DNA from: Candidatus Moraniibacteriota bacterium
GTDB taxonomy: Bacteria; Patescibacteriota; Minisyncoccia; Moranbacterales; UBA1568
NCBI GenBank assembly: GCA_052034935.1
Contig: JBPOIB010000005.1
Span: 16,357-80,356, forward strand
Direction of reading: 5' to 3'
Length of the DNA stretch: 64,000 bases
In this document: one piece after another, positions 281 through 50,060 of the stretch
Position numbering within the stretch: position 1 is the stretch's first letter
How the letters are laid out: each line of letters opens with the position of its first letter
The notes under the pieces: model-generated
What the model saw: only the letters and a program-made list of their open reading frames with translations
Databases searched by the model: none
What the model was told of the DNA's origin: nothing
Translations under genes and position numbers: made by a program

Positions 281-352
<72 letters not shown>

Positions 353-361
353 CAACCTATA

Positions 362-6278: not shown

Positions 6279-6545
6279 ATGGCTAGTCTCTCAAAGCAGA
6301 AGCTCATTCGTCGACTCAAGATTATCGAGGGTCAGGTCCGTGGCTTACAAGAAATGATTGAAAAGGATGTCTACTGTATTGACGTCATTACCCAGACCTC
6401 AGCGGTGAAGCAGGGGCTGACCGTAATTGAGGACACGATGATGGAAAGTCATCTGGGGAGCTGCGTCATCAAGCAGATCAAGAGCGGAAAAGAACAGAAG
6501 GCAACCGAGGAAATCCTGAAGGTCTATCGGTTGAAAAGAAAATAA
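6279..6545 (+). CDS. csoR: CsoR/RcnR-family metal-sensing transcriptional repressor
   Basis: 88 aa; YCIDVITQTSAV...ESHLGSC matches the C-H-C metal-ligand pattern of the CsoR (DUF156) family. Confidence 0.8.
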   Translation: MASLSKQKLIRRLKIIEGQVRGLQEMIEKDVYCIDVITQTSAVKQGLTVIEDTMMESHLGSCVIKQIKSGKEQKATEEILKVYRLKRK

Positions 6546-6579
6546 GATACCTCGTATATAATTTTGAAAAAATACGCAT

Positions 6580-7143
6580 ATGTCATCCTCTCTCTCGCTC
6601 CCACTCGCCGTCGCTCTCATGATTATTACGGGAATTCTCGGGCTCGGAATCGGTCATTCTCTGACTCCTGAGTATCGGCTTTCGATGTATGAAAAGAACG
6701 GGATGGATCTCGGTCGTGCCGATCGAACACTCGACCTCCGGTATGTGAATGCAATGATTGCTCATCACCGGGGAGCGATGCTGGTCGCAGAACAGGCGAC
6801 AAAAAGTGAACGGACTGAAGTGAAGAATCTCGCTGAGGCGATACTGAAAGATGAGCCGAAGGCGATTGCTGAGCTGTACGCCTGGAAAAAAGACTGGTAT
6901 CAAGATGAACGAAAAGTCGCGGATCCGATTGCCCCGAAACTGGGAAGCTACGATAAGACGTTCGACCTCAGATTCCTCAACGCCGTTATCGCTCACCATG
7001 AAAATGGTGTCGCGATGACTCAGGATGTCCGCCTGAAGTCGAATCGCTCCGAAGTCCTCGATAATGCCGACGCGGTTGAGGCTTTCCTCAAGGGTGGGAT
7101 TACGATGCTCAAGGAGTGGCGCAGCGCTTGGTATAGCCTGTAA
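6580..7143 (+). CDS. DUF305-family protein (tandem duplicated domain)
   Basis: Two repeats carrying NAMIAHHRGAMLVA and NAVIAHHENGVAMT, with an N-terminal TM. Confidence 0.7.
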   Translation: MSSSLSLPLAVALMIITGILGLGIGHSLTPEYRLSMYEKNGMDLGRADRTLDLRYVNAMIAHHRGAMLVAEQATKSERTEVKNLAEAILKDEPKAIAELYAWKKDWYQDERKVADPIAPKLGSYDKTFDLRFLNAVIAHHENGVAMTQDVRLKSNRSEVLDNADAVEAFLKGGITMLKEWRSAWYSL

Positions 7144-7152
7144 TCCATCGGT

Positions 7153-9438
7153 ATGAAAAAAACAACTTTCTCTGTTGCCGGAATGCACTGCGCGAGTTGC
7201 GCTGCAATCATCACAAAATCACTCCAGAAGGTCGAAGGCATTGGTGAAGTACAAGTGAATTACGCCACTGAAACCGCGAGCGTTTCATACGAACAGTCGG
7301 TCGCACCGGTAGCGGCCATGAATGAGGCGGTCACCAAGTATGGCTACACTCTCGCTCCACGAGAGGTTCTTCCCCAAGCGGTGCTCGCTCCTGACCAGAG
7401 AGAACCTGGGCCGAGAGCTGGGGGCGACCATACGAATTCACTCAAGGCAAGCGAATTAGCCAGTCAGCGGGCTAAAACACAGCTGGTATTTCCTCTCGCG
7501 CTCGCCGTCTTCATTATCATGATGTGGGACATTGCCGCTCGCTCGCTCTCGGGCATTCCGAATCTGCCGCTTCCGATGGAAGTCTTCGGCATTGTGGAAC
7601 TTGTTCTCGCGACGGTGGTCATGTTCTGGATTGGCCAGCCATTCATTGCTGGTGTTGCCCGGTTTATTCGCTACCGGGTTGCCAATATGGATACCTTGAT
7701 CGGTATCGGAACACTTTCAGCCTACCTCTACAGCGCCGTTATCACCTTACTTCCAGAATTCCAGGAACGGTTCCGGCTCCCGGACTATACGTACTTTGAT
7801 GTCGTTATCGTTGTCATTGGTTTTGTCACGCTCGGTAAGTATCTCGAAGCAAAATCAAAGGAGAAAACGGGCGAGGCTATCAAAAAACTGCTTAACCTCC
7901 AAGCAAAAACGGCACTCGTTTTACGTGATGGAACAGAGCAAGAAATCCCAGTGAGCGAAGTGCTTGTAGGAGACACGGTAATCGTGAAACCGGGGAGCAA
8001 GGTTCCGGTTGATGGGAAAATCATCGAAGGTGCAACTGCGGTCGACGAATCAATGATTACTGGCGAGTCGATGCCGGCAGATAAGCGAGTCGGCGATATG
8101 GTTATCGGCGCCACACTCAATAAGCAGGGAAGTATCCAGCTTCACGCGACGAAAGTGGGGTCTGACACGATGCTTTCCCAGATTATCCGCATGGTTGAGG
8201 AAGCGCAGGGCTCAAAAGCGCCTATTCAGGCCACAGCCGACAGAATATCGGGAATTTTTGTCCCCGTGGTACTCGGCATCGCCTTCGCCGCACTCCTCGC
8301 CTGGATTGTCATCGGTTCGTTTTTCATCGGTCAGGCACTCGCTATCTCTTATGGATTGCTTTCCTTTGTTGGGGTACTGGTGATCGCTTGTCCCTGTGCT
8401 CTTGGCCTCGCTACTCCTACGGCGATTATCGTCGGAGTTGGCAAAGGAGCGCAGTATGGCATCTTGGTGAAAGACGCGGAGAGCCTCGAACTCCTCAGTC
8501 AGGTCGATACAATCGTCTTCGACAAGACCGGCACTATTACCAAAGGTGAGCCTGCGGTGACGGACGTTGTCGTTTTGGACAGTCGTTACACCGAAGAACA
8601 GATTGTCGTATTGGCCGGGAGTGTCGAAAAGAAATCCGAACATCCGCTCTCAGCAGCTATCGTTGCCCGAGTGAAGGAAATGGGGCTCGATTTTGCGCCG
8701 GCCGAGAGCTTTCAGGCACTGGAAGGAGTGGGGGTCGAGGCACACGTTCAAGGTACACAAATATCTATCCATAAGCCCGAAAAGGACAATCAAGACTCGA
8801 AGCTGCGAGCTCTTCAGGTAGAGGGAAAGACGGTTGTCATCGTGGCGGCAGACGGTCGAGAGGTGGCGCTCATTGCTCTCGCTGACACCATAAAAGAGGA
8901 GGCGGTTTTGGCGGTTACTGAACTGCGAAAGAGGGGTATCCGAACTATCATGTTAAGCGGAGACAACAAAATCGTGGCTAATCAAATTGCGAAAGAGGCT
9001 GGGATTGATACGGTCATCGCCGAAGTTCTGCCCAACGAGAAAGCGGGGAAGATTCGTGAATTGCAGGCGGCGGGGAGTATCGTCGCCATGGTGGGTGATG
9101 GGATCAATGATGCCCCGGCTCTCGTTCAAGCGAATGTCGGAATCGCTATGGCAACCGGCACCGATATCGCGATCGAATCAGCCGGAGTGACGGTGCTCCA
9201 CGGAGATCTTCGTCGGGTTGTCCAGGCCATCGAGCTCTCGCGGGCGACGATTCGAACGGTAAAACAGAACCTTTTCTGGGCGTTCATCTATAATGTCATC
9301 GGTATTCCGGTCGCGGCGGGACTCCTCTATCCGCTGTGGGGTATCATTCTGAATCCAGTGTTCGCCGGTCTTGCGATGGCCTTCTCGAGTTTGTCAGTGG
9401 TCGGGAATTCACTCCGACTGAAAACGAAAAAATTATAG
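7153..9438 (+). CDS. copA: copper-translocating P1B-type ATPase
   Basis: N-terminal HMA (GMHCASCA), CPC (ACPCALGLATP), DKTGTIT, GDGINDAPAL, and a TGES-like motif. Confidence 0.9.
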   Translation: MKKTTFSVAGMHCASCAAIITKSLQKVEGIGEVQVNYATETASVSYEQSVAPVAAMNEAVTKYGYTLAPREVLPQAVLAPDQREPGPRAGGDHTNSLKASELASQRAKTQLVFPLALAVFIIMMWDIAARSLSGIPNLPLPMEVFGIVELVLATVVMFWIGQPFIAGVARFIRYRVANMDTLIGIGTLSAYLYSAVITLLPEFQERFRLPDYTYFDVVIVVIGFVTLGKYLEAKSKEKTGEAIKKLLNLQAKTALVLRDGTEQEIPVSEVLVGDTVIVKPGSKVPVDGKIIEGATAVDESMITGESMPADKRVGDMVIGATLNKQGSIQLHATKVGSDTMLSQIIRMVEEAQGSKAPIQATADRISGIFVPVVLGIAFAALLAWIVIGSFFIGQALAISYGLLSFVGVLVIACPCALGLATPTAIIVGVGKGAQYGILVKDAESLELLSQVDTIVFDKTGTITKGEPAVTDVVVLDSRYTEEQIVVLAGSVEKKSEHPLSAAIVARVKEMGLDFAPAESFQALEGVGVEAHVQGTQISIHKPEKDNQDSKLRALQVEGKTVVIVAADGREVALIALADTIKEEAVLAVTELRKRGIRTIMLSGDNKIVANQIAKEAGIDTVIAEVLPNEKAGKIRELQAAGSIVAMVGDGINDAPALVQANVGIAMATGTDIAIESAGVTVLHGDLRRVVQAIELSRATIRTVKQNLFWAFIYNVIGIPVAAGLLYPLWGIILNPVFAGLAMAFSSLSVVGNSLRLKTKKL

Positions 9439-9445
9439 CATCACT

Positions 9446-10465
9446 ATGCAAACCTATACCTTTCATGTTTCTGGGCTCCACTGTAATGCGTGTATTCTCC
9501 TCACTGAGTCTGAATTGACCGAACATCCGAAAATTTCTTCAGCCAAGACAAGTCTCAAAAATCATTCCATCGAAGTGGTGGGAGATTTTGGCGATACACC
9601 GCCTGAAGCAGTTGCGCGCGAGCTCAGTAGCCTCCTCGAAAAACATGGCTACCGACTCTCGGTTGAAAAAGAAGTTCAAGTACGTAACTGGTCCGACTTC
9701 CGCTTCGCCCTCCCCATCGCGCTTGCCTTTGCTCTTTTCTTCGTCCTTCTCCAAAAGGCCGGCATTGTGAACGTGGTGGATGCGGAATCGGTTTCGTATG
9801 GGACAGCCTTTCTCATTGGCGTGGTCGCTTCGCTCTCGACGTGTATGGCTGTCGTCGGCGGACTGGTACTCTCGATGTCGGCTACTTTTGCGAAGGAAGG
9901 GGATCGGATGAAGCCTCAGCTTCTCTTTCATGTCGGCCGGTTAATTGCCTTTTTTCTTCTCGGAGGATTGATCGGAGCCCTGGGGGCGAATTTCTCCTTG
10001 AGTACGGGGGCGACCTTTTTCCTGAGTCTCTTGGTTGGTCTGGTGATGCTTATCCTTGGCATCAATCTCCTCGACGTCTTTCCTTGGGCGAAAAAATTGC
10101 AGCCAGCGATGCCGAAATTTCTCTCAAAGCGAGCTTACAACGTCTCGAAGCTGAACCATACCTTCACTCCGTTTCTTATCGGTATCGCCACCTTTTTCCT
10201 GCCCTGTGGTTTCACACAGTCGATGCAGCTCTATACGCTTTCGACGGGAAGTTTTATAGATGGTGCCTTGACGATGCTTTCTTTCGCCCTCGGAACACTG
10301 CCGGTACTGGCACTCATCAGCTTCAGCTCGTTTTCCATGCAGCAAAGTACGAAAGCCGGAGTCTTCTTCAAGTCTGCTGGACTCATCGTTATCCTGTTCG
10401 CTCTGATGAATCTCATCAACAGTCTCGTTATCGCTGGGCTCATCTCACCAGTGTTCAATTTCTAG
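9446..10465 (+). CDS. HMA-domain protein fused to a TauE/SafE- or DsbD_2-like polytopic permease
   Basis: N-terminal ferredoxin-like metal-binding motif (GLHCNACI) followed by about 8 TM helices containing ...SLSTCMAVVGG. Confidence 0.6.
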   Translation: MQTYTFHVSGLHCNACILLTESELTEHPKISSAKTSLKNHSIEVVGDFGDTPPEAVARELSSLLEKHGYRLSVEKEVQVRNWSDFRFALPIALAFALFFVLLQKAGIVNVVDAESVSYGTAFLIGVVASLSTCMAVVGGLVLSMSATFAKEGDRMKPQLLFHVGRLIAFFLLGGLIGALGANFSLSTGATFFLSLLVGLVMLILGINLLDVFPWAKKLQPAMPKFLSKRAYNVSKLNHTFTPFLIGIATFFLPCGFTQSMQLYTLSTGSFIDGALTMLSFALGTLPVLALISFSSFSMQQSTKAGVFFKSAGLIVILFALMNLINSLVIAGLISPVFNF

Positions 10466-10517
10466 CGTGGTACAGTGTGGGTAATCCGAAAAATAACTTC
10501 CTGATAATCTAAAATAT

Positions 10518-10910
10518 ATGAAAATAACCTTTGGCATTATTCTTGCGGCAGCGATTGGTCTCGTTGGGTACCTGTTCATTCAGTCAGGGGGAGCAAGTTC
10601 AACGAGTGAGGCCCCATCGACGAGCAATGTCAGCATCGTTGATGGGCGGCAGATCGTTGTTCTCTCGGCCAAGGCTGGGTATACCCCAAGGGTGAGCGAG
10701 GTAAAGGCTGGAATTCCGACCATTCTTCGGGTTGAAACCAATGGGACTTTTGATTGTTCGTCCCAGATTCGTGTTCCGAGTCTGAATATTAGCCAGGCTT
10801 TGCCGGCTACGGGAGCGACCGATATTATGCTTGGAAGCCTGGCCGCTGGAAAACTTGATGGCACCTGCGGGATGGGTATGTATCCGTTCCAACTCAATGT
10901 TCAGAGTTAA
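10518..10910 (+). CDS. secreted cupredoxin-like small protein
   Basis: Signal peptide; beta-rich; the C-terminal ...DGTCGMGMYPFQLNV resembles the Cys/Met copper-site region of PF13473-type cupredoxin-like domains. Confidence 0.45.
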   Translation: MKITFGIILAAAIGLVGYLFIQSGGASSTSEAPSTSNVSIVDGRQIVVLSAKAGYTPRVSEVKAGIPTILRVETNGTFDCSSQIRVPSLNISQALPATGATDIMLGSLAAGKLDGTCGMGMYPFQLNVQS

Positions 10911-10913
10911 GGC

Positions 10914-11453
10914 ATGAGCAGGACTTCTTACCTTGTTATTGCCCTTGCTGCCCTCGCTCTCATGGAAGGCGTTGCTTGGACTGTCTGGAAGTCCTCAAAG
11001 GAGGCGCCCGCGCACCAGCCAAGGGCCGATGAGGAATCTGTTCGTAAGGAAACGTCGCAGGATCAGTCTTCTCCGGCGACCCATCTTTCCGAAGTTTCGA
11101 ATCCGAGCTCGTCAGGAACGGAGGATGCTGATTCTGAGAGTTTTCCTCCTCCCACCACTGAAGCAAAGAACGGCCGGACGGAACGGACCATTCATATGGG
11201 AGTTCGTCAGTATGCTTGGGACCCTCCCATCATAAAAGCGAAACAGGGCGAGCTGGTCCGCCTCATTGTCCATAATGCCGATGTTCAGCACGGATTGGTA
11301 ATCCCTGAACTTAACGTATTAAACATTGATATCCCTCCAGATGGGGCAGTGATAGAGTTCGTTCCCGATAAAGTTGGGACGTTTGTGTTTTTTTGCTCCT
11401 ACTACTGCGGCGATGGGCACAGCGAGATGCGTGGAAAAATTATCATTGAATAG
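10914..11453 (+). CDS. cupredoxin-domain protein
   Basis: WDPPIIKAKQGELVRLIVHNADVQHGLVIPELNV...GTFVFFCSYYCGDGHSEMRGKIIIE shows the H...C...H...M type-1 copper-site pattern. Confidence 0.6.
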   Translation: MSRTSYLVIALAALALMEGVAWTVWKSSKEAPAHQPRADEESVRKETSQDQSSPATHLSEVSNPSSSGTEDADSESFPPPTTEAKNGRTERTIHMGVRQYAWDPPIIKAKQGELVRLIVHNADVQHGLVIPELNVLNIDIPPDGAVIEFVPDKVGTFVFFCSYYCGDGHSEMRGKIIIE

Positions 11454-11493
11454 GCAGCCCTGTATCCGAAGCCCTAATGACGGAAAAGAAAAA

Positions 11494-11526
11494 CACCCCG
11501 GTTTCTCGGGGTGCTTCTTTTTTGGG
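11494..11526. terminator. bidirectional terminator between convergent genes
   Basis: caccccg-gtttct-cggggtg followed by cttctttttt. Confidence 0.7.
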
Positions 11527-11533: not shown

Positions 11534-11794
11534 CTACGAGAGGTGGGCGCCGATGAGTTTCGTCATCTCGAACATCCCGACCATGTCTTTTCCAAAGACC
11601 GCCTTGAGCGCTTCGTCGCAATTGATATTGCGCTTGTTCGCCGGGTCCTGGAGATTCTTGCTCTTGATATAGGCCCAGAGCTGCTTGGTTACTTCCGAAC
11701 GGGGCATTGGCCCGGCACCGACTACGACTGCGAGTTCTGGGCTGATTTTCATCGGCTTCATGAACGCGGAATTGCTCGTCGCCATAACTTTCAT
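11534..11794 (-). CDS. SWIB/MDM2-domain protein
   Basis: 86 aa; ...SEVTKQLWAYIKSKNLQDPANKRNINCDEALKAVFGKDMVGMFEMTKLIGAHL matches the SWIB fold consensus (WxYIKxxxLQDP...i.cD..L..lfg...v.mfem.kl...Hl). Confidence 0.7.
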   Translation of the reverse strand: MKVMATSNSAFMKPMKISPELAVVVGAGPMPRSEVTKQLWAYIKSKNLQDPANKRNINCDEALKAVFGKDMVGMFEMTKLIGAHLS

Positions 11795-11907
11795 GCTTTA
11801 AAGGGTTACGGCTCCCATTATACACCCTCTTCCGCTCCTGGGAAGTCGTTCCGGCCTCCAGGGTGAATATGGTAAAGTGAAAGAAAGATAAAACAGACAC
11901 AAAACTT

Positions 11908-13098
11908 ATGGGTGAAAAACTCGTCATCAACGATATGGCTGGCGACAGCCAGATGGACTTCATCATCCAGGAGGCGGCCAAACGAGGGGCATCTGACATC
12001 CATATCGATCCTTTGCCGGATGAGGTACTCGTCCGTTTCCGTATTGATGGTGTCTTGCGTGAGGCGAATCGATTTCATCGCGACTATCTCGACCATGTCG
12101 TCAATCAGTTGAAAGTTGCCTGTAATCTCGAGGTGGGAAATGTGCGCTTGCCGGAAGATGGACACTTCTCGATTGAGTTTGCGGATGAAACCACCGGTCT
12201 GAGTAAAATTATCGACCTCCGTATCTCGATGTTTCCGAGCGTGAACGGCACGGCGGCGGTCATGCGTATCCTGAACCGGGCAGAAATGCTCGTCTCGCTC
12301 GATCAGATTTTCACCGACCCAGAAACGCTCACTCAGGTCCGCTCGATGACACTGTCGAGCTATGGCATGGTGCTGACCGCCGGTCCGACCGGCTCGGGCA
12401 AGACAACGTCGCTCTATGCCATGCTCATGGAAACCAACCGCAAGGAACGTAATATCCTTACGCTGGAGGATCCAGTCGAGATGTACTTTGACGATATGCG
12501 CCAGAGCCAGATTCATCCGGAAATCGGCTACAGTTTCGCTAAGGGAATGAAGAGTATTCTTCGTCAGGATCCGGACGTGATCATGATTGGCGAGATCCGG
12601 GACGATGAAACAGCTGAGTATGCTGTTCAGGCCGCGCTGACCGGCCGGCTGGTCTATTCGACGGTTCATGCCAATACGACGATTGGCGCGATTGCTCGCT
12701 TCATCGATATGGATATCGAACGCGGGCTCATTGCCTATGCGATCCGCGGCGTCATTTCACAGCGTCTCGTTCGGAAAATCTGCCCTTCCTGCAACATCGC
12801 CGAAGAGAATCCGCGCCAGGAGTTCATTGACTTCCTCGGCCTGCAGGGGATGATTATCCCGTATCGAAAAGGTGCCGGTTGCAGCGAGTGTGACGGGACC
12901 GGATTCAAGGGCCGAGCCGGGATATTTGAGATCCTCCAATTCGATGACACGCTCCGGGCGATGATCGTCGACAAGGTTTCGATGACCGATTTGCAGGCCT
13001 ATGCGGTGAGTGCGGGCATGCGGACCCTGCGACAGAACGGCATCAATATGGTCGCGGCCGGAGAGACGACACTCGAAGAGATTATCCGCGTCGTCTAG
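11908..13098 (+). CDS. GspE/PilB-family secretion ATPase (short form lacking the N1 domain)
   Basis: Walker A GPTGSGKTT, Asp box, Walker B, His box, and the tetracysteine motif CPSC...CSEC. Confidence 0.85.
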   Translation: MGEKLVINDMAGDSQMDFIIQEAAKRGASDIHIDPLPDEVLVRFRIDGVLREANRFHRDYLDHVVNQLKVACNLEVGNVRLPEDGHFSIEFADETTGLSKIIDLRISMFPSVNGTAAVMRILNRAEMLVSLDQIFTDPETLTQVRSMTLSSYGMVLTAGPTGSGKTTSLYAMLMETNRKERNILTLEDPVEMYFDDMRQSQIHPEIGYSFAKGMKSILRQDPDVIMIGEIRDDETAEYAVQAALTGRLVYSTVHANTTIGAIARFIDMDIERGLIAYAIRGVISQRLVRKICPSCNIAEENPRQEFIDFLGLQGMIIPYRKGAGCSECDGTGFKGRAGIFEILQFDDTLRAMIVDKVSMTDLQAYAVSAGMRTLRQNGINMVAAGETTLEEIIRVV

Positions 13099-13154
13099 CT
13101 GCTTTTTCGTATCACTCAGCCGTTCGCTGCGTGTTAGACTGGGAAGATAAGATT

Positions 13155-14525
13155 ATGCTTTCCCTAAAAAGGTCTATGACGCTGAAGTGGCTTGCCCGGA
13201 TTCATCTCGGACTGCTCCTTTTTTCATTTTTCCTGTACCTCGGATTCGGATTTGTTTTCGGCCCGGAATTTCTCTACCAAGACATTCGGAAAAAACTTTT
13301 CGCGTTCGCCGCGGATGATATCGTCGTGACGGCTGTGGTCCCTGGCCCGCCTGCCGCCCCAATCATCACTGCCACTCCAACTTGTATTTCCGGCGCCCCA
13401 CGTATCGTGCTCGACTGGCCGGATGATAACGGAAGCACGAGTTTCGATGTGGACCGTGACTCGATGGCACTCACGAGCGGATTAGTCGTTTCTGGTTATA
13501 CCGATACCGCCGTTACCGCTGTCACCACGTACAGTTATGAAGTGACCGCCTTTGGACCAATGGATCCAGGTACAGCGGTTTCTGCGTCTTTCTCGGTCAC
13601 AACACTCGACTGCTCAAATATCGCACCGGTGACCGTGACTATCGAGACACTCGGAGGAAAGAGCGTTATAACGGACCGAACCAATGTTGATATCACAAAA
13701 TTTCGGCCGAAGATCTCGGGCACCAGCAATACTCCGGATGCCATCATCGATATCCTGGTTACCAATCCGACGCTTCGAGCCCGGATACTCGCCAATTCCA
13801 ATGGTTATTTCGAATGGCTTCCGCCGATCAAGCTCGATGCCGGCCGGCACTTGATCGAAATTACAGCGACCGATCCTACGGATCCCAGTCGGACCGCGAC
13901 GGATGCACTCATCTTCAAAGTGATAGGAAGTGGGGATAATGGGGGTGGTGGTGCTCGACCGAATGAATCAGGGGATCTGAGTCTTCCGGAAAGTGGAGGT
14001 GGTATCGACTTCTTTGTGACGGTGAATAACGAGCAGTCAATCGTTTCTCAGGAAGAGATACTTTCCGTTACTCTCGCCACCCGGAAAGGTGTTTTTCCTG
14101 AAGACACGACCGCGAGTATCTTCCTCAATAATCCGGATTATCAGGACTCGCTCCAATTTTCGAGGCTGCCGCTCCTCGCCGGACAGAAGAGCGTGACGCT
14201 GTTTGAGCGTCTTCCGCTCTATCTTGAACCCGGCCAGTACCGCGTCCGGGCCGATGTGGTGGTTCGCGGAGAGATGACGAGTCGGGAGGCTTCGTTCACC
14301 TTGAAACCGCTTCCGTTTTTCTCACTTGCCGGGCGGGAAATCAGCTACGCTGAGGCGGCGAATTACATCGGTTTCTTCTTTTTCTCGCTCCTTTTTCTTT
14401 TTCTCTTTCTCCTCCTCTTCTTCGTCCGTGAATACTGGCTGTCGCTGCATCGTCTTCGTTCAATTACCGAGCGCCATCTCGGCCGTCTCGGATTTCTCGG
14501 AACCGGAAAGGGGGTGATCCGATGA
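13155..14525 (+). CDS. bitopic membrane protein with extracellular Ig/FN3-like beta-rich region
   Basis: N-terminal TM (start taken at the ATG 13155 with GGAAG upstream; the track starts at GTG 13131), T/S/V-rich beta repeats, and a C-terminal hydrophobic FFFSLLFLFLFLLLFF segment. Confidence 0.5.
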   Translation: MLSLKRSMTLKWLARIHLGLLLFSFFLYLGFGFVFGPEFLYQDIRKKLFAFAADDIVVTAVVPGPPAAPIITATPTCISGAPRIVLDWPDDNGSTSFDVDRDSMALTSGLVVSGYTDTAVTAVTTYSYEVTAFGPMDPGTAVSASFSVTTLDCSNIAPVTVTIETLGGKSVITDRTNVDITKFRPKISGTSNTPDAIIDILVTNPTLRARILANSNGYFEWLPPIKLDAGRHLIEITATDPTDPSRTATDALIFKVIGSGDNGGGGARPNESGDLSLPESGGGIDFFVTVNNEQSIVSQEEILSVTLATRKGVFPEDTTASIFLNNPDYQDSLQFSRLPLLAGQKSVTLFERLPLYLEPGQYRVRADVVVRGEMTSREASFTLKPLPFFSLAGREISYAEAANYIGFFFFSLLFLFLFLLLFFVREYWLSLHRLRSITERHLGRLGFLGTGKGVIR

Positions 14526-14842
14526 GTACTGAAATATTCCTGCTCCTCCTGTCATTCCTGACGATTGTCTCCCTGCTCTCATCACTGGTTTTCGTCATCG
14601 GCATCGTCTGGCGGGTGGAGATGGAACTCGACATCTCGTTCAAATTCTTTGCTTTCGCTGTTCTCTTCCTGCTCATGATCGAGGGACTCAGTCTGCTCCC
14701 GGCCAGTCGCTTCGAGGCTTGGTGGCAGCTGGCACTCCCGATCGTGAAATTTCTGGCGGCAGTCAATCTTTTGCTCGGACTGTTCTTCATGCGCGACCTC
14801 ATCCGCCGGCTGGACGGTGAGAAAGCGCCAGTTCGGAAGTAA
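14522..14842 (+). CDS. small membrane protein (3 TM), hypothetical
   Basis: ATGA start/stop overlap with the upstream gene. Hydrophobic throughout. Confidence 0.45.
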   Translation: MSTEIFLLLLSFLTIVSLLSSLVFVIGIVWRVEMELDISFKFFAFAVLFLLMIEGLSLLPASRFEAWWQLALPIVKFLAAVNLLLGLFFMRDLIRRLDGEKAPVRK

Positions 14843-14947
14843 CTTTCGAGAGTGAGGAGAAATGAGCGGCTTCGGCTGCTTGTTTTTTTATCTGACCATG
14901 ATAAGGTTGTGGCATCGATTCAACGACCCAACGCGGAGGAATCAACC

Positions 14948-16342
14948 ATGAGAGTTCTTTCCATACTGATACTCGTTCTCGTTACGTCTCTTTCGGTACG
15001 GGCCAACACATTTCCGGAAGAAGCCTACTACGAGCGGGTGCTGGCCGAAGAAGCAAACGTGTTCGTCGATTGCGACGCGCTTGAAACGGGGCGTCTGACC
15101 TGTGAGCGGATCAAGACAGCCCGCCGTTTGGCCTACCAGGCCAAGCTGCAGACTTTCGACCAGCTCGAAGGGAAACGCCGCGTGCCGTATCGGGAATTCG
15201 CGCTCATCGTCTATGATCCGGAAACGAAAGGATTCCGCGATCTGCGTCTCGGCATGCCGGTCAATGTCGCCAAGGCACCTCATTTTCAGCCGATCGTCCT
15301 CTCTGGGGACGCGACTGATTGTCAGGTGACGCGGCTTCGTGGCCAGTCGCTCAACAAGATGGTCTTCGATATCGTCTGTGGCGGACGCACGCTTCACGCC
15401 TACGCGGCGAAACATCTGCTCTTTGCCGATGTGAAGCTGCACGCTCTTTGGGGTGGCCGGACGATTCCGCGGACCGAAGAGGTGGTGTACCTCGAGGTCT
15501 CGCCACACTTCGTTTCCGAGGAAACGGCCCGGGCTGGTCAGGCGGTGTTCATGCAGCTCATCGAGCAAGCATTCACCGATTTGCGTGAGCTCGGTGTCCC
15601 GTCACGGTCTTCGCCCGGACGTCTCCTGGCTGACGTCGTCACCGTCGATTCGGTGGCGAACCTCCTGGTCACTGAACAGGCAGATCCGTGCTTCCGGCAA
15701 GGTGAGCGGACGAAAGGCTGCAAGCGTCTCATTCCACAACGGCCCTATCGGGACAATGCAGAGGTGATGCAAGCAGTGAACACGGCCTTCTTCCTGAATG
15801 GCGGTCTCGCGTATCGCTACATGCGTTCGGGCGCTGCTGCGGGCGGGGCGCTCCAGTTCACGAATAACCGTACGAAGCGGTATATCGGGACCTATAATAG
15901 CGTTCTCAAGAACTGTCCCAGCGCCCGGATCGATCCTGACTTCCAGCGAGGGACGCGGAGTATCCGCAATCTGGCCAAGGCGGCAGCGTGTCTCATCGAC
16001 ATGGAGCGGGCGGCGCTTCCTGAATGGGCGCGCGAAGCCTATCACCGCGATCCAGAATTCGGTCTGCCGATTCTCGGCGCCGCCTACAATGGAGGTGCAG
16101 CACGAGCGAGGACAGTGGCCCGGCTCATCGAAACCTTTGCCAAGAAGCATGGAATCAATGAGGAGATGTTCCTCTTCCATCTTTTTCCTTGGGATGAGTT
16201 CCTCGCCTGGATCGATCGGGTCCAGCACGGGCTGCCACCGGAAACGCGCGTGTACATCGAGAAGATCATCGATACAACGCGGCATCTCTATCGGCATCGT
16301 CCGAAAATGCCAGAAGTGAACTTTGAAGGGGCTCTCGGCTGA
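14948..16342 (+). CDS. secreted hypothetical protein; the C-terminal region carries an SLT-like AYNGG motif
   Basis: GGAGGAA RBS before ATG 14948; signal peptide MRVLSILILVLVTSLSVRA. The motif ...ALQFTNN...AAYNGGAARARTV only weakly resembles lytic-transglycosylase motifs. Confidence 0.5.
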   Translation: MRVLSILILVLVTSLSVRANTFPEEAYYERVLAEEANVFVDCDALETGRLTCERIKTARRLAYQAKLQTFDQLEGKRRVPYREFALIVYDPETKGFRDLRLGMPVNVAKAPHFQPIVLSGDATDCQVTRLRGQSLNKMVFDIVCGGRTLHAYAAKHLLFADVKLHALWGGRTIPRTEEVVYLEVSPHFVSEETARAGQAVFMQLIEQAFTDLRELGVPSRSSPGRLLADVVTVDSVANLLVTEQADPCFRQGERTKGCKRLIPQRPYRDNAEVMQAVNTAFFLNGGLAYRYMRSGAAAGGALQFTNNRTKRYIGTYNSVLKNCPSARIDPDFQRGTRSIRNLAKAAACLIDMERAALPEWAREAYHRDPEFGLPILGAAYNGGAARARTVARLIETFAKKHGINEEMFLFHLFPWDEFLAWIDRVQHGLPPETRVYIEKIIDTTRHLYRHRPKMPEVNFEGALG

Positions 16343-16360
16343 GGCCCTTTTTTCTTTGGC

Positions 16361-16389
16361 TTGTCAGCGAAAAGGCGAGTTGGTACTAT
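16361..16389 (+). promoter_or_regulatory. sigma-70-like promoter TTGTCA-17-TACTAT
   Basis: Canonical spacing, upstream of the SET-domain gene. Confidence 0.5.
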
Positions 16390-16436
16390 GTTCAGGTGCC
16401 ACACCCATGTCCGTAGGGACTTTTTTATTACCCCTT

Positions 16437-16883
16437 ATGTCTACGACTAAGCATGTCCGTCCGACCAATGTCGCCGTGAAGCGCTCGAGTGCCGGCCTCG
16501 GGCTTTTTGCCGCCGCTCCCATCAAGAAACGCGAAACTATTATCGAGTACATTGGCCGTCGGATCGCCTCCAAAGACGGAGACGAGCTCGATCAGAACAG
16601 CTATATCTTCACCGTGAATAGCCGGCTTGATATCGATGGTAGCCCCCGCTACAATACGGCGCGCTATGCAAATCATTCTTGCCGGCCGAACGCTGAGTCG
16701 GTCATCCGCAAAGGCCGAGTCTTCATCGTGGCGCTCAAAAATATTCTTCCGGGCGAAGAGATCACCTATGATTATGGCGACGACTTTTTCAAGCATTACA
16801 TCAAACCCTTCGGCTGCAAGTGCGTAAAGTGCATGGCGAAGCGAGAGGAAGACAAGGCTGAGCCTCAAAAGGCGAAGGTGTAG
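16437..16883 (+). CDS. SET-domain protein (putative protein lysine methyltransferase) with post-SET Cys cluster
   Basis: GLGLFAAAPIKKRETIIEYIG, ...RYANHSCRPNAE, GEEITYDYG, and the post-SET CKCVKC. An alternative start is ATG 16407. Confidence 0.75.
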   Translation: MSTTKHVRPTNVAVKRSSAGLGLFAAAPIKKRETIIEYIGRRIASKDGDELDQNSYIFTVNSRLDIDGSPRYNTARYANHSCRPNAESVIRKGRVFIVALKNILPGEEITYDYGDDFFKHYIKPFGCKCVKCMAKREEDKAEPQKAKV

Positions 16884-16923: not shown

Positions 16924-17631
16924 ATGGAAGAACAGATCCCTTTTCCGGTGCGCATCAACCGCTATCTGGCGCTCCGCGGACTCACGACGCGCAAAGCGGC
17001 TGACGGGCTCATCGCGTCCGGACGTGTCCTCGTGAATGGTAAGCCGGCCGAACTTGGCATGAAGGTAGATGCCGGGGATGAGGTCGAAATCAAGGGCGAA
17101 GTCCGATCCAAACCCTATCGCTATTTCCTCTACTACAAGCCGCGCGGAATCATCACCCATTCACCCCAGCGTAAGGAGAAGAGTATCGCTGATATTTTCC
17201 CCGAAAAGGGAGTTTTTCCGATCGGCCGTCTCGATAAGGCTTCCGAGGGGCTCATTATCCTGACCGACGACGGACGGGTGACGGAGCGGTTGCTCCATCC
17301 GCGCTTCGTCCATGAGAAGGAATACGAAGTGATCGTCCGCGAAGATATCCCGAATAATGCCGAGGTACGGCTTTTGGCGGGCGTGATGAATGAGGGAGAA
17401 AAACTGGCAGCGAAGAAGGTGGTGAAGACGGGTCGGACCGCTCTCTCGATCGTTCTCGTCGAAGGAAAGAAACACCATATCCGTCGTATGCTCGATGCGC
17501 TTCACTTGACGGTGAAGGAACTGAAACGGGTGCGGATCATGGGTCTTCGAATCGGGACGCTTGCACCCGGCGAAGCGAAGAGGCTTGAACAGCCGGAAGA
17601 AAAAGCCTTCTTGTCATCGCTTGGCCTGTAG
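16924..17631 (+). CDS. RsuA/RluB-family rRNA pseudouridine synthase (S4 domain + catalytic domain)
   Basis: S4-like N-terminus (RINRYLALRGLTTRKAADGLIASGRVLVNG) and the catalytic Asp motif GRLDKASEGLIILTDDG. Confidence 0.8.
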   Translation: MEEQIPFPVRINRYLALRGLTTRKAADGLIASGRVLVNGKPAELGMKVDAGDEVEIKGEVRSKPYRYFLYYKPRGIITHSPQRKEKSIADIFPEKGVFPIGRLDKASEGLIILTDDGRVTERLLHPRFVHEKEYEVIVREDIPNNAEVRLLAGVMNEGEKLAAKKVVKTGRTALSIVLVEGKKHHIRRMLDALHLTVKELKRVRIMGLRIGTLAPGEAKRLEQPEEKAFLSSLGL

Positions 17632-34605: not shown

Positions 34606-37600
34606 TTAGGCCTGAGTGCTGGCAGTTGCCGGTTTGGCCAAAACTCGGTCATTATCATCGAACCACATCTCGTAGATGACGGGGATGAAGAAGAGCTTGG
34701 CGATACCGGAGAAGGAGAGTCCGGCGATGATAGCGCCCCCGAGGCCCTGCCAGATCGGGTCAGCGAGCGTGATCGGGATGAGACCGATGATGGTCGTGAG
34801 CGCGGTGAGGAGAATCGGCTCGAGCCGACTCGTTGCACCCTCGACGACCGCTTCGCGGACGGGGAGTCCGAGGTTGAGATTCTTGTTGATCTTGTCCACC
34901 ATGATGATGGAATTGTTCACCACGATGCCGAAGAGTGCGAGTACGCCAATCAAGGCTGGGAAGGAGAGCGGGATACCGAAGAGAGCAAAGATGATGAAGA
35001 CGCCCGAGACCGCAATCGGAATGACGAGGAGTACGATGAGCGCTTTACGGAACGAATTGAACTGGATTACCATCGTCCCGAAGATGAGGATGGCCGAGAG
35101 CACCATTGCATAGAGGATAGATTGAACAGACTTATTGTTCTCTTCGTTTACGCCACCGGTCTTCCAAGTGTAGCCAGCGGAAAGGCCGAGTTCAGTATCG
35201 GCGAACTTCTCGAGCGCAGCATTCAGCTCGGTTACGGCGTAGCCTTCGTCGACGCCGGCTGAGACGGAGATGCTCCGCTTCTCGTCCTCGCGGGTGATGA
35301 GAGTAGGATTCTTTTCGAGGGTGATGGTACCGAGCGAGAGGAGGGGGACCTGCTTGCCATCTTTTGTTTCAAGCAAGAGGCGCCCGAGGTCTTCGGGTGT
35401 GCCGAACTCTTCGTCGGTGAGACGGATGATGATATCGCGCTTATCTTCGCCGAATCGCACATCTTCTTTGACCGTGTAGCCGCTCCCGAGGGTGCGGAGG
35501 AAGAGAGCAGTATCGGCCGGAGTGAGGCCAGCTGCCGCGATTGCAGCATCATTCGGCGTGAAGGTGAGCTTCTTTCCGGCACTTGAAAGCGAAAGCGTGA
35601 CATTGCTCGTCCCGGCAGTCGCCTGCAGATAGGTCTTGGTCTTTTCGGCGTACGCCTGCAAGACGGAAAGGTCTTCGCCAAGAAGTTTCAATTGAAGATC
35701 GCTGCCGGCTGGCGGACCGCCGGAGAGTTGCGAGGCCGTGACAATGCCCCCGTTCCAATCAGCGAAGGCGCGCTCCAGTTCAGTGACGATTTCGCCAGAG
35801 CTCTTTTCGCGCTCCTTCGCCTTGATGAGGTGGACAGTGAAGAGGATGAGATTGTAGTCCTTGCCGGTCGCGCTTACTGCGCTGTCGGTCGGGGCGCCAG
35901 CACCGATTTCCGCGAGTACGAAATCGAGCTCAGGGAGATCTTGGAAACGTGGTAAGAGCTCGTTGACAGCTGCCACTGCCTTCGTCTCACTTATTCCAAT
36001 CGGCATCTCGGCGCTGACGTAGACGATTGTCGTGTCATCACTCGGAAAGAACTCGTTCACGACATAGCCGAGAGGAACGAGAGCATACGATCCGACCATG
36101 AAGATGATGAGAAAGACCATGGTAAGACGCCGGGCACGCTTCGAAGAGAGAATGCGCTCAATCAAAGCGCCGTACCACACCGAGAGTGAGTCAAAAGAGA
36201 GGAATCCGTGGTCTTGGAAATTCCCCCAGATTCTCCCAATCTTCGTTTCATGCCAAGCGGTCACGCTCTGGAGGAATGAGCGGATGAGACGGAAAGCGAG
36301 AAAGAGCATGATGAGGCCGAGAAGATAGAAGACCCATTTCAGCGGTCCGGCTGGCATGAGTTGGAAAAGGACAAGCGCGGCAATGATGAAGAGTGCGCCT
36401 CGCAGGAAGACAACAACACGTCGCGGAAACTTTCCCTCGAGGAAAATCGCCATGTAGGGGATGACGAGGAAAACAGCCGTGATAGCCGAGAGAGCGAGCG
36501 CCGAAGAGACGACAATCGGAATCGGCCGAATGAATTCGCCGATGATGCCAGTCGCGAGGAGGAGGGGAACGAAGGCCCAGACCGTCGTAATGGTCGTTGT
36601 CATGATGACGCCGCTGAAATCGCGGAAGACGAGGAGAGCTGTCTCGAGCGGTGTGAACTTACCGGAGCGGTGATAGCTCGCGAGGGCCGAAATGACGACG
36701 ATAGCATTGTCGACGATGATGCCGAGCGCGATGAGGAGCGAGAAGAGGGTAATGAAGTTAATCGAAATCCCTGCTGCGCCCATCACAAGAAAGGTGACGA
36801 GGAAAGTGAAGGGGATGGCAAAAGCGGTGATGAGAGATTGGCGCACTCCGAAGAAGAGGAGGAGAACGATAAAGACGAGTCCGAATGTGATGAGGAAGTC
36901 CCGCTGGAGCTGGCTGAAACTCTTATCAATTTCCTCTGCACCATCGAAGTAGAAGAGTGTTTCGAAGGCAATTGGGGAAGCGGCTCGGTAGTCGCTAATT
37001 GCTTTCTGGATGCTATCGATTGCTTCGCGCGTATCAGCGCTCTCAGTCTGGTAGACAGAAAAGAAAATCGCCCGGCTACCGGCGTGCGATGGGGTGGCAG
37101 CAAAAGCGGCGAGACTGCCGGGTTTCTCACGCTCATTGATATCAGCGATGCTTCCGAGCGCTACCGTCTGGCCTTGGAGGGAAAAAGGCAGATTGCGCAG
37201 ATCTTCGATTGAGCGAATGCCTTTTTCTTGGTCGAGCGAGAATGCAGTCGCTCCCGAAGCGATGCTGCCGCCAGGGAAACTCGATAAAGATCCTTCAATT
37301 GTCCGGCCGATGCTGGCGATATCGAGACCGTAGGCATTCAGTTTCTCTGGCGAGAGGAGAATGGAGACTTCGGGCTCGCGCCGATAGGAGAGACTCGCTT
37401 TTTCGACGGCCGGGAGCTCTTTGATTTTCTCAAGGAGACGGTCAGCAAGTTCTGGGAGTGCGCTCTCATGGCCGGGAGCCGAGACGGCAAAAAGAAGCAC
37501 CGGCTGGTTGGTGAAGTCAATTACTTCGACAGAGGGGTCCTGAGCTGCTTCGGGAAGCGTATTCACGCGATCGATGGCATTCTGGACATCGATTTTAGCT

Positions 37601-37962
37601 TTGTCCGGATCAACGGAAGAGGCGAATTCGATCACAATCGAAGAGAAGCTCTCCTGTGAGTTCGAGGTGACACGCGTGACGTCGGAGAGCCCGGTAACGG
37701 CATCTTCGAGCGGAATCGTGACAAGGTCCTCGATGTCTTCGGGCCCAGCCCCCGGAAAAGCGGTTGCGACGATAACGGTCGGAATCTGGATATCTGGGTT
37801 GAGTTCCTTCTTCAGCGAAAAATACATGGTGATGCCAGCGACGATGAGCGTCGCGGTGATGAGCAGGATCGTGCGAACGCTCGCGAAGTAGCGGCCGATG
37901 AGACCGTCTTTGAGCTTCGGGTCGAAGTGGAGCCGGTCAAAGAAGCCTTTGGTATAGGACAT
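34606..37962 (-). CDS. RND-superfamily efflux transporter permease (AcrB/HAE-like, 12 TM, two large loops)
   Basis: 1118 aa with N- and C-terminal halves of 6 TM each and the typical conserved Gly/Asp TM4/TM10 regions. Confidence 0.85.
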   Translation of the reverse strand: MSYTKGFFDRLHFDPKLKDGLIGRYFASVRTILLITATLIVAGITMYFSLKKELNPDIQIPTVIVATAFPGAGPEDIEDLVTIPLEDAVTGLSDVTRVTSNSQESFSSIVIEFASSVDPDKAKIDVQNAIDRVNTLPEAAQDPSVEVIDFTNQPVLLFAVSAPGHESALPELADRLLEKIKELPAVEKASLSYRREPEVSILLSPEKLNAYGLDIASIGRTIEGSLSSFPGGSIASGATAFSLDQEKGIRSIEDLRNLPFSLQGQTVALGSIADINEREKPGSLAAFAATPSHAGSRAIFFSVYQTESADTREAIDSIQKAISDYRAASPIAFETLFYFDGAEEIDKSFSQLQRDFLITFGLVFIVLLLFFGVRQSLITAFAIPFTFLVTFLVMGAAGISINFITLFSLLIALGIIVDNAIVVISALASYHRSGKFTPLETALLVFRDFSGVIMTTTITTVWAFVPLLLATGIIGEFIRPIPIVVSSALALSAITAVFLVIPYMAIFLEGKFPRRVVVFLRGALFIIAALVLFQLMPAGPLKWVFYLLGLIMLFLAFRLIRSFLQSVTAWHETKIGRIWGNFQDHGFLSFDSLSVWYGALIERILSSKRARRLTMVFLIIFMVGSYALVPLGYVVNEFFPSDDTTIVYVSAEMPIGISETKAVAAVNELLPRFQDLPELDFVLAEIGAGAPTDSAVSATGKDYNLILFTVHLIKAKEREKSSGEIVTELERAFADWNGGIVTASQLSGGPPAGSDLQLKLLGEDLSVLQAYAEKTKTYLQATAGTSNVTLSLSSAGKKLTFTPNDAAIAAAGLTPADTALFLRTLGSGYTVKEDVRFGEDKRDIIIRLTDEEFGTPEDLGRLLLETKDGKQVPLLSLGTITLEKNPTLITREDEKRSISVSAGVDEGYAVTELNAALEKFADTELGLSAGYTWKTGGVNEENNKSVQSILYAMVLSAILIFGTMVIQFNSFRKALIVLLVIPIAVSGVFIIFALFGIPLSFPALIGVLALFGIVVNNSIIMVDKINKNLNLGLPVREAVVEGATSRLEPILLTALTTIIGLIPITLADPIWQGLGGAIIAGLSFSGIAKLFFIPVIYEMWFDDNDRVLAKPATASTQA

Positions 37963-37968
37963 AGGGAT

Positions 37969-39132
37969 TTACTGGATCGGTTCAATAGTTTCACCCGAGA
38001 GAACGCTCGCGTTCAGGACAAGACGGGCATCTTTTTCCAAACCATCGGTAACGATTACCGAAGAGCCAATCGTGGCGCCGAGCGTCACGGCAATTTCTTT
38101 CGTGAGGTGATTTTCATCCATCAAGATGACCGAGGTCTTGTCGGCGGCTGACCGGATCGCATCGACTGGGATGAGGAGGCCGGTTTCAGTTTCTCCGACG
38201 AGCGGGAGACGAAGCGTGACAAAGCTGTTGTGTGCGAGAGTGTCGGCGGTCGCTGCCGGTAGAGCATAGGTCGCCATGACGAGACCAAGCGTGTTTTCAC
38301 TCCGGGCGAGATAACCTTGAGAAAGTACTGTCTCGCCGGTGGCCTGCTCGAGGATGGCGATGCCGGAATCGACGAGTGCATCGGCGGTCGCTTTCGGAAG
38401 CGCGGCCTCGAGGATGGCGGTTGGAGCTGTACCACGAATCGTCATGAGGACAGTGCCAGTGGAAACGAGATCGCCCGGACGAACGCCAATGTACTCAACT
38501 GTGCCACTGGCAAGGCTTTTCGGCCGGAGCGCGGCATCGCTTCGTTCAGCAATAGCGAGGTCAAGAGCGGCGTTCGAGCGCCCAAGTCGGAGGCGTTCGA
38601 GCTCGAGCTTGAGTGCCTTCAGTGCCGCCTTCTCCTCATCTTTGCTTTTCGAGCTGTCATCCTTGGCAATCTCCTTTTGCAGCTCAATAATGTCTTTCTC
38701 CAACTCGAATGTGCGCTCGGTGTAGCTAGTGCTGAGTCGAGCCTTTTCTTTTGTCAGGTCAGCAACCCCACTACCATAATCATTCGTCAGTGTTGCAAGT
38801 GTTTGTCCGACGCCGACCATCTGGCCGGTTTTGACGTGGATACTCTTTACGACACCAGGGGCAAGAGCGACGATGTCTGTGACACCTGATTTCTTCACCC
38901 GAGCAGAAACAGTTGTTTCGGTTTGATCCGTTCCCACGGTAAAAATATCGGCTGTTTTGATAGCTTTTTCTGGAAGCTCAGATTCTTTATCTGCTGTCCG
39001 CAAAGTATGCGCAAGCACGACCGTACTGAAGAGGATGACAAGCACGATAATGAAACTGACCGTTGGTCTTTTTTCCAGCCGAACGAAGAGTGCTTTGAAC
39101 ATAGAGTGAGAAAAAATGGATAGGAGGTTCAA
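37969..39132 (-). CDS. RND efflux periplasmic adaptor (membrane fusion protein)
   Basis: N-terminal TM, lipoyl-like VTDIVALAPGVVKSIHVKTGQMVGVGQTLATL, coiled-coil hairpin, beta-barrel. Confidence 0.75.
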   Translation of the reverse strand: MNLLSIFSHSMFKALFVRLEKRPTVSFIIVLVILFSTVVLAHTLRTADKESELPEKAIKTADIFTVGTDQTETTVSARVKKSGVTDIVALAPGVVKSIHVKTGQMVGVGQTLATLTNDYGSGVADLTKEKARLSTSYTERTFELEKDIIELQKEIAKDDSSKSKDEEKAALKALKLELERLRLGRSNAALDLAIAERSDAALRPKSLASGTVEYIGVRPGDLVSTGTVLMTIRGTAPTAILEAALPKATADALVDSGIAILEQATGETVLSQGYLARSENTLGLVMATYALPAATADTLAHNSFVTLRLPLVGETETGLLIPVDAIRSAADKTSVILMDENHLTKEIAVTLGATIGSSVIVTDGLEKDARLVLNASVLSGETIEPIQ

Positions 39133-44186: not shown

Positions 44187-44191
44187 AGAAT

Positions 44192-45382: not shown

Positions 45383-45384
45383 AC

Positions 45385-50038: not shown

Positions 50039-50060
50039 GAGGGTAACGATAAAAACTTAG

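Follow-up and report, generated by a model that had tools for sequence, protein, structure and literature searches.

SWIB- and SET-domain genes lying close together on a Moranbacteria chromosome: probably two independent housekeeping genes

What is to be made of a bacterium in which two eukaryote-like chromatin domains are encoded within 5 kb of each other? The question is raised by a 64-kb stretch of Candidatus Moraniibacteriota contig JBPOIB010000005.1 (positions 16,357 to 80,356; hereafter the window), which carries the genes of a stand-alone SWIB/MDM2-domain protein (11534..11794, minus strand; 86 aa, pI 9.6) and of a minimal SET-domain protein with a post-SET Cys cluster (16437..16883, plus strand; 148 aa, pI 9.5). 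The initial annotation likened the pair to that of Chlamydiae and saw in it either a nucleoid-protein methylation system or effectors aimed at a eukaryotic or bacterial host. The initial domain assignments are correct but ordinary, both proteins being already named in public Moraniibacteriota records, and we consider it probable that they represent two independent housekeeping genes, one for a nucleoid- or transcription-associated SWIB adaptor, the other for a distinct lysine methyltransferase of endogenous role, whose targets would be one or several basic proteins that bind nucleic acids. The main value of the analysis is negative, since the locus no longer looks like an exotic eukaryote-like or effector one; what remains is a SET family, compact, with a post-SET cluster and all its catalytic residues, which is common to Patescibacteria and soil Alphaproteobacteria and often bears basic H1-like tails.

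Domain identity, conservation and distribution

Both domain assignments of the initial annotation hold over the full length of the respective Pfam profiles. The SWIB open reading frame (ORF), for which an alternative start at the ATG at 11785 (giving MATSNS...) is possible, matches PF02201 from position 1 to 74 of 74 (109 bits, cut-off 25; E 9.5e-32). Its closest solved relative by sequence is the SWIB domain of yeast UAF30 (7z0o_G; E 7e-16, residues 13-85); in UAF30, which has 228 aa and belongs to the upstream activating factor of RNA polymerase I, the domain is part of a larger subunit, whereas the SWIB domain of the window stands alone. An AF2 model of the protein (pLDDT 84.5) superposes on the SWIB domains of Arabidopsis At5g14170 (1v31; TM 0.80, rmsd 1.2 A) and mouse BAF60a (1uhr; TM 0.78-0.80, rmsd 1.2-1.3 A), and MDM2 structures are matched as well. 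In NCBIfam the protein matches nothing but the SWIB modules that form the C-terminal parts of topoisomerase III and of a chlamydial topoisomerase I fusion protein (PRK14724, PRK06319), the chlamydial TopA-SWIB model being matched at domain level with 72 bits; no topoisomerase gene is present in the 64-kb window. A BAF60/RSC6-type remodeller subunit was considered and rejected: the protein is an 86-aa single domain without BAF60-type flanking regions, and the 'RSC6' names in source records are domain-level transfers.

SWIB proteins of Moran-, Kaiser-, Yanofsky- and Taylorbacteria, Paceibacterota and unclassified Patescibacteria keep to 74-92% identity. Their alignment has a mean column identity of 85% and 43 invariant columns, among them those of the N-terminal NSAFMKP segment, in which a Lys is conserved. 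The protein is under very strong constraint, and identities of this order, unusual among the fast-evolving proteomes of the candidate phyla radiation (CPR), point to a central role. Patescibacterial SWIB proteins have been mentioned once, in passing, among horizontally exchanged 'chromatin' genes of unclear role (PMC12455944).

The SET ORF likewise covers its whole Pfam profile (PF00856, 1-105 of 105; 82.2 bits, cut-off 22.4; E 4e-23), and its closest solved relatives are the SET and post-SET regions of KMT2D, KMT2C and MLL1 (E 3e-16). We examined its motifs in an alignment of 35 homologues spanning 52-87% identity. The cofactor-binding motif G20-L-G22, which aligns with GLG of KMT2D and KMT2C, is invariant. 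The segment R76-Y-A-N79-H-S-C82-R-P-N85 aligns with RYINHSCAPN and contains the NHSC motif of cofactor binding and the pseudoknot (N79-H80-S81-C82; 16671..16682, plus strand), itself aligned to NHSC of KMT2D and KMT2C; within the segment N, S, C, P and N are invariant and H is nearly so. In E107-E-I-T-Y111-D-Y113 (16755..16775, plus strand), preceded by G106 and aligned to GEELTYDY of KMT2D, Y113, at the conserved catalytic Tyr position, shows no variation, and the conservation of Y111 reaches at least 90%; Y38 and Y56 also align with KMT2D and KMT2C. All three Cys of the post-SET cluster C127-x-C129-x-x-C132 (16815..16832, plus strand), aligned to the KMT2C post-SET, are invariant. The catalytic Tyr and the NHS motif, whose absence the initial annotation had named as grounds for dismissing its reading, are both in place. 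The last Tyr of the ELxF/YDY motif is the catalytic one in SET enzymes, and the residue two before it acts as a Phe/Tyr switch, Tyr favouring mono- or di-methylation. Judged by its sequence, the protein is most likely a complete, active protein-lysine methyltransferase, with Tyr111 predicting a mono- or di-methylated product.

The fold agrees with this assignment: the AF2 model of the SET protein (pLDDT 71, pTM 0.60) is matched by Foldseek to the SET domains of MLL1, MLL3 and MLL4 (probability 1.00, TM ~0.5), and also to that of the minimal viral vSET. The KMT2/MLL/Set1 domains (4z4p, 5f59, 2w5z) are the closest solved, at ~31-36% identity, with GLG, NHSC, ELTYDY and the post-SET Cys all aligning. 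They differ from the window protein in several respects. The latter is a stand-alone 148-aa protein which has no pre-SET region and lacks the regions that interact with WDR5, RbBP5 and ASH2L, the insert between the halves of its SET domain is much shorter, its post-SET spacing is CxCx2C against the canonical CxCx4C, and a long branch lies between the two. The viral vSET (3kma) is similarly minimal and 30% identical, but is not known to have a post-SET Cys cluster.

The window protein belongs to the family named by NCBI 'SET domain-containing protein-lysine N-methyltransferase' in Patescibacteria and Alphaproteobacteria: proteins of 130-160 aa with SET and CxCxxC, 52-88% identical to it in the former and 50-57% in the latter, sharing its invariant residues. 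Long tails rich in K, R and A are common in the family. Among 215 members, 121 carry C-terminal tails of at least 10 aa after CxCxxC (mean 36% K+R, 7% D+E) and 73 carry tails of at least 20 aa, some of these being long K/R/A-rich AK repeats resembling histone H1 or chlamydial Hc1 (P0090, P0055, P0113, P0092, P0254, P0258 and others). Such tails suggest association with DNA or RNA; the tail of the window copy is short and weakly basic. Two longer proteins, P0241 (264 aa) and P0242 (352 aa), show two matched stretches each and are possibly tandem double-SET proteins.

To map the distribution of the family we scanned one genome per GTDB species by alignment, finding SET relatives in at least 596 species; the best 80 of these loci were retained with 10-kb flanks and, together with loci fetched earlier, make up a set of 87. 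The best 80 include proteins of Bradyrhizobium, Microvirga and Xanthobacteraceae, 50-57% identical along their whole length; these, and not eukaryotic SETs or the effector SETs of pathogens, are the nearest relatives beyond the phylum. Close relatives at the same level are found in metagenome-assembled genomes (MAGs) of Blastocatellia (Acidobacteria) and Gammaproteobacteria. In a neighbour-joining tree built without bootstrap, with KMT2C/D as its only outgroup and no chlamydial, Legionella or archaeal sequences in it, the bacterial family lies far from KMT2C/D on a long branch, and the SETs of Patescibacteria and of Alphaproteobacteria mostly form separate groups. Homologue searches with SWIB and SET alike returned more than 5,400 clusters each at E <= 1e-3, and the named top relatives of both are from Candidatus Moraniibacteriota/Moranbacteria and other Patescibacteria. 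The significance that the initial annotation gave to the joint presence of the two genes finds no support: both are lineage-wide families of Patescibacteria, and the SET family is shared with Bradyrhizobium, Microvirga and Xanthobacteraceae besides. Bacterial SET proteins, including those of Bradyrhizobium, have long been known (PMC3980110, PMC10117894); our literature search found no paper pairing SET domains with Patescibacteria or Parcubacteria.

The genomic setting is equally ordinary. Since ribosomal protein L20, SmpB and tmRNA, ArgRS, IleRS, BipA and RecO are all encoded in the window, it is ordinary chromosome. Around the pair, ~20 kb are collinear with CP064975.1, a complete Moraniibacteriota genome of 1.2 Mb, the genes in order being those for copper ATPase, HMA-DsbD, cupredoxin, SWIB and secretion ATPase, followed by two membrane proteins, SET, pseudouridine synthase and then glycosyltransferases. 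The source is a Moranbacteria (Patescibacteria/CPR) chromosome to which SWIB and SET are native; their GC and GC3 contents match those of neighbouring genes, and no mobile-element context was seen around them. Viral contigs yielded just nine SET relatives, eight of them at 32-36% identity, and carriage by mobile elements is unsupported.

Transcription signals and the SWIB-SET neighbourhood

The two genes are on opposite strands, separated by 4.6 kb and four further genes. SWIB is preceded by a promoter-like site, TTCCCA-16-TATAAT (11817..11844, minus strand), identified by consensus match alone (10/12), and just past its stop codon the sequence scan shows an intrinsic-terminator-like hairpin of 12 pairs with a T-run (11489..11518, minus strand).

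On the SET side, the ATG at 16437 is the favoured start, most of the 35 homologues beginning at the equivalent M-x-TKH-RPTN. Two other starts were rejected: ATG 16407, the choice of one gene-calling program (P0001, 158 aa), precedes the point at which the homologues begin, and TTG 16323 is unsupported by the homologue alignment and would also overlap the upstream gene and its terminator. That terminator, a hairpin with T-run read from the sequence (16329..16353, plus strand), closes the gene upstream of SET, and stem substitutions in loci L001 and L008 preserve its pairing. It is followed by the site TTGTCA-17-TACTAT (16361..16389, plus strand), which has 9/12 consensus matches and a TG extension, and which the initial annotation had put forward as the promoter of the gene. 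The site exists, and its -35 and extended -10 elements are kept in position in L001, L002, L008 and L009 (CTTGyy-17-TGrTAyyAT); by number, four such sites in the region against 3.9 expected from shuffles, it is not significant when taken alone.

Between the promoter-like site and the start codon lies a small leader hairpin, GTCC-GTAG-GGAC followed by T6 (16409..16426, plus strand), separate from the terminator of the upstream gene. Equivalents are found ~20-50 nt before the SET start in ~15 Moran-type loci (L001, L002, L008-L018, L022, L023, L028), 10 by a strict pattern and the others by eye. The stem varies while its pairing is kept: TGTCC/GGACA, CGTCC/GGACG, TTGCC/GGCAA and GAATCGTC/GACGATTC. 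The folding energy of the hairpin is no better than that of shuffled sequences (z -0.11), and the leader gave only chance-level matches to Rfam. It may be an attenuator or a stabilising 5' stem-loop; a riboswitch was rejected, the leader being merely ~40 nt long.

That SWIB and SET are in all likelihood expressed separately follows from several signs: they lie on opposite strands; a promoter-like site precedes each of them; SWIB ends in a terminator of its own, and another terminator stands ahead of the promoter-like site of SET. Even in L011, where SWIB and SET are neighbours on one strand, SWIB is clearly followed by a terminator.

How far the proximity of the genes extends was assessed across the 87 SET loci, of which the Moran-type clade of the tree accounts for 23 (plus the window) and other lineages for the remaining 64. 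SWIB lies within 10 kb of SET at 14 of the 23 Moran-type loci and at none of the 64 others, which include Kaiserbacteria, Lloydbacteria, MAGs labelled Peribacteria and Saccharibacteria, and all the Alphaproteobacteria. The reciprocal test, on 80 metagenome loci centred on SWIB, of which 36 had 10 kb of flank or more, placed SET beside SWIB once, about the level expected by chance for ~1-Mb genomes. That one case, on a more distant Patescibacteria contig (L145, 10001..10748), has SWIB and SET convergent and 134 nt apart. Within the Moran-type loci the arrangement varies: an inverted SWIB directly adjoins SET in L010; SWIB is directly upstream of SET on the same strand in L011 and L022; it lies 1-7 kb upstream in L012 and L015-L018; and in the window SWIB is inverted and split from SET by a secretion-ATPase cassette. 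An ancestral Moran-type neighbourhood, later interrupted, is the simplest account of these arrangements. On this account the pair forms neither an operon nor a two-gene system of its own, and the closeness to which the initial annotation attached meaning comes down to synteny restricted to Moran-type genomes, between separate units on opposite strands.

Ten of the loci (L010, L011, L012, L015, L016, L018, L022, L023, L036 and L084) bear the record title 'uncultured Bdellovibrionales bacterium'. Those with enough flank (L010-L023) have the gene order of the window and 65-89% protein identity; because they share this synteny and identity we treated them as Moran-type, and their titles look like mislabels.

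Function of the two proteins

On the reading we favour, two independent housekeeping genes, the SWIB adaptor would be produced from its own promoter and terminator and would bind DNA-bound partners through the SWIB cleft. The SET protein would use S-adenosylmethionine via GLG and NHSC with Tyr113 as catalytic residue, its Zn-type post-SET cluster, putatively joined in the Zn site by the Cys of NHSC, closing the lysine channel, and would find its substrate or substrates among the basic nucleic-acid-binding proteins of the cell itself. The basic character of both proteins (pI ~9.5) lends indirect support to association with nucleic acid. Precedents exist for each half. A stand-alone SWIB protein of Waddlia binds along the whole genome in ChIP-seq (PMC6426960), and plant SWIB-4, an architectural nucleoid protein which, like At5g14170, is also a small basic single-domain SWIB (~32% sequence identity), binds DNA and compacts nucleoids, and an hns mutant of E. 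coli is complemented by it (PMC4154389, a review); fusions of SWIB domains to topoisomerases are also known in bacteria. For SET the closest functional precedent for an endogenous role is archaeal: Go1-SET of Methanosarcina mazei, a small prokaryotic SET with an endogenous substrate, methylates the DNA-binding protein MC1-alpha in vitro, and cpnSET of C. pneumoniae is reported to methylate Hc1 (PMC3980110). A role in nucleoid-protein methylation is possible for the window protein. Should the substrate of the family be a nucleoid protein, Bradyrhizobium would give access, in an organism that can be cultivated, to the methylation of bacterial chromatin on lysine by an endogenous enzyme.

Several observations weigh against this reading. 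The vicinity of SWIB and SET persists through inversion of SWIB, inserts of 0-7 kb and direct adjacency (L010, L011, L022), and such persistence could mean selection for proximity rather than mere inheritance. The SET tail of the window is short, mixed in composition and weakly basic, and the SET model is moderately confident (pLDDT 71), with the region between the SET halves poorly predicted. Delivery to a host is also conceivable, given the presumed host dependence of CPR bacteria.

The first of these points is the core of the alternative that survives best, in which the two genes form a coupled bacterial 'chromatin' module, SET methylating SWIB or a nucleoid protein recruited by SWIB, as has been proposed for Chlamydiae. 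Besides the vicinity in 14 of 23 Moran-type loci, through rearrangements and with adjacency in both orientations, it can draw on the further adjacency in the distant locus L145, on the basic nature of both proteins and the H1-like basic tails of many SET homologues, and on the conserved Lys within the invariant NSAFMKP segment of SWIB. The reported methylation of Hc1 by cpnSET (PMC3980110) and the statement that SWIB and SET often co-occur (PMC6426960) are also in its favour. The linkage, however, fails at all 64 non-Moran SET loci and at all but one of the 80 SWIB-centred loci; the genes were never in an operon where examined, being on opposite strands in the window and parted by a terminator in L011; and the same SET family occurs in Alphaproteobacteria among unrelated neighbours. 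We regard the coupled module as unlikely, while giving it some weight.

The parallel with Chlamydiae drawn by the initial annotation bears on the same point. It is fair as a resemblance: there too a stand-alone SWIB of ~86 aa (CT460, Waddlia Wcw_0377) and a small SET protein (cpnSET/NUE) are encoded in one genome, alongside TopA-SWIB (PMC6426960). The chlamydial set includes Hc1 and Hc2, whereas no Hc1/Hc2-like gene lies within the 64-kb window; more broadly, the search for an Hc1- or HU-like substrate produced no candidate there, no HU-, Hc1-, H1-like or K/A-rich ORF being found in the window except that of ribosomal protein L20.

A wider form of coupling can be imagined, to which we attach only a small probability: a minimal chromatin-like system throughout Patescibacteria, in which the ultra-conserved SWIB would be the adaptor, SET, often with an H1-like tail, would methylate SWIB or another nucleoid protein, and the Moranbacteria pair would be a remnant. 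If true, this would amount to regulated nucleoid-protein methylation outside Chlamydiae, in a huge uncultured radiation.

Another alternative detaches SET from SWIB altogether and makes it a methyltransferase of the translation apparatus, acting on a ribosomal protein or translation factor. Its starting point is the gene downstream of SET, which encodes an S4-domain rRNA pseudouridine synthase of RluF/RsuA/RluB-like type (16924..17631, plus strand; Pfam, NCBIfam) and is the most constant neighbour of SET, in 20 loci at a median gap of 87 nt. In another lineage SET adjoins QueA, a tRNA-modification enzyme, and the basic tails of the family would bind RNA as readily as DNA. The SET enzymes Rkm1-4 and Efm1 of yeast methylate ribosomal proteins and eEF1A. 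Against this, the adjacency to the pseudouridine synthase is confined to one group of related genomes, the Moran-type, and may be plain synteny; a promoter-like site divides the two genes in L011 and in the window; and no neighbour is conserved across phyla. When the ORFs within 4 kb of SET at the 87 loci were clustered, the pseudouridine synthase alone recurred; the neighbours in Bradyrhizobium, inspected by eye (a TetR-type regulator, a carotenoid-oxygenase-like protein, a DsbA-like protein and an XRE-type regulator), are uninformative. The same is true of SWIB, beside which only an ABC-F-type ATPase recurs in the 80 metagenome loci (12 of them), without functional information. A translation role for SET seems to us improbable.

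There remains the idea that SET, SWIB and the ankyrin protein are effectors delivered into a host, in the manner of NUE, RomA/LegAS4, BtSET and BaSET. CPR bacteria are generally regarded as host-dependent. The characterised SET proteins of bacteria that PMC10117894 lists are without exception secreted nucleomodulins; in Waddlia, SWIB has been found in the nuclei of host cells (PMC6426960); SWIB and SET are separated in the window by a secretion-type ATPase cassette; and models of Legionella Ank effectors are matched at domain level. Hydropathy analysis, whose scope does not extend to type III or type IV signals, revealed no signal peptide or hydrophobic N-terminus in either SWIB or SET, the maximum 15-residue hydropathy of SET (1.18) being located inside the domain; NUE, by comparison, is an effector that leaves the cell by type III secretion and carries nuclear localisation signals (PMC3980110). 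The match of SET to the T4SS_AnkI/LegAS4 model reaches 34.2 bits against a cut-off of 550 and is at domain level only. The cassette is missing in relatives that retain SWIB and SET. With RomA/LegAS4, BtSET and BaSET the window protein shares the SET catalytic core, but it has no fused ankyrin repeats, no secretion-system context and no host-restricted distribution; membership of the secreted nucleomodulin group was rejected on the LegAS4 equivalog score. Far from being confined to host-associated pathogens or symbionts, the family is found at 50-57% identity in Bradyrhizobium, Microvirga, Xanthobacteraceae and the Blastocatellia and Gammaproteobacteria MAGs.

The ankyrin-repeat membrane protein that the initial annotation noted at 43560 is genuine (43560..44186, minus strand; 208 aa): an N-terminal hydrophobic helix would anchor it in the membrane, and repeats at residues 55-145 match Ank with E 1.3e-13. 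Its gene is the third in a MacB-type ABC transporter operon (43560..46731, minus strand), 27 kb from SWIB and SET, in which the ABC ATPase and FtsX/MacB permease genes are separated by 2 nt and the permease and ankyrin genes by 5 nt. It looks like a strain-specific accessory, because no close relative of its product was found in JGI metagenome contigs. Membership of a transporter operon, together with the native composition and housekeeping context of SWIB and SET, their extreme lineage-wide conservation, unlike that of fast-evolving effectors, and the few SET relatives on viral contigs (9 loci), makes the effector hypothesis very improbable; nothing found favours host targeting.

Genes around the pair and other features of the window

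The four genes between SWIB and SET are all on the plus strand. The first encodes a GspE/PilB-type secretion ATPase (11908..13098; Pfam T2SSE, E 4.6e-108), whose NCBIfam matches to GspE and PilB fall below the equivalog cut-offs. It is followed by the genes of a 464-aa membrane protein, hydrophobic at both ends and with a weak Ig-like match (13131..14525; 56-59% identity in six relatives), and of a 106-aa hydrophobic, likely membrane, protein without a family match (14522..14842; 68-72% identity in relatives). The scan of the cassette genes turned up no PilC-like platform gene. The cassette formed by these three genes (11908..14842) is present in L001, L002, L008, L009 and L020, partial in L023, and absent from L010, L011 and L022; since it is present in some Moran-type genomes and absent from others, it behaves as an insertion or deletion unit among them.

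The fourth gene encodes a 496-aa protein with a hydrophobic N-terminal segment (14852..16342), found in the closest relatives only (L001, L008 and L009, 47-52% identity) and without a Pfam or NCBIfam match even at E <= 1. Its AYNGG and GGALQF motifs recall lytic transglycosylases; comparison with the genuine SLT protein of the window (58664..60145) is marginal (E 0.02).

On the other side of SWIB, at lower coordinates, lies a copper-handling cluster (6279..11453, plus strand) comprising a CsoR-type repressor, DUF305, an HMA P-type ATPase, HMA-DsbD and two cupredoxin-like proteins. The copper ATPase, HMA-DsbD and cupredoxin genes recur beside SWIB, or just past SET and the pseudouridine synthase, in many Moran-type loci.

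Further along, an AcrB-type RND efflux pump (1118 aa) and an adjacent HlyD-type membrane-fusion protein are encoded at 34606..39132 (minus strand); no gene for an outer-membrane factor was identified among the ORFs scanned. A protein of the alternative-oxidase (AOX) family is encoded at 54625..55308 (plus strand; Pfam E 5e-8), and another in L003 (303..998); the CPR lineage is usually described as lacking respiratory chains. The tmRNA gene (109 bits) adjoins that of SmpB, the two features lying at 50058..50461 and 50504..51163, both on the minus strand; the SmpB ORF is 219 aa long, and its match to the SmpB profile begins at residue 75. A tRNA-Asn(GTT) gene stands at the start of the window (281..353, plus strand).

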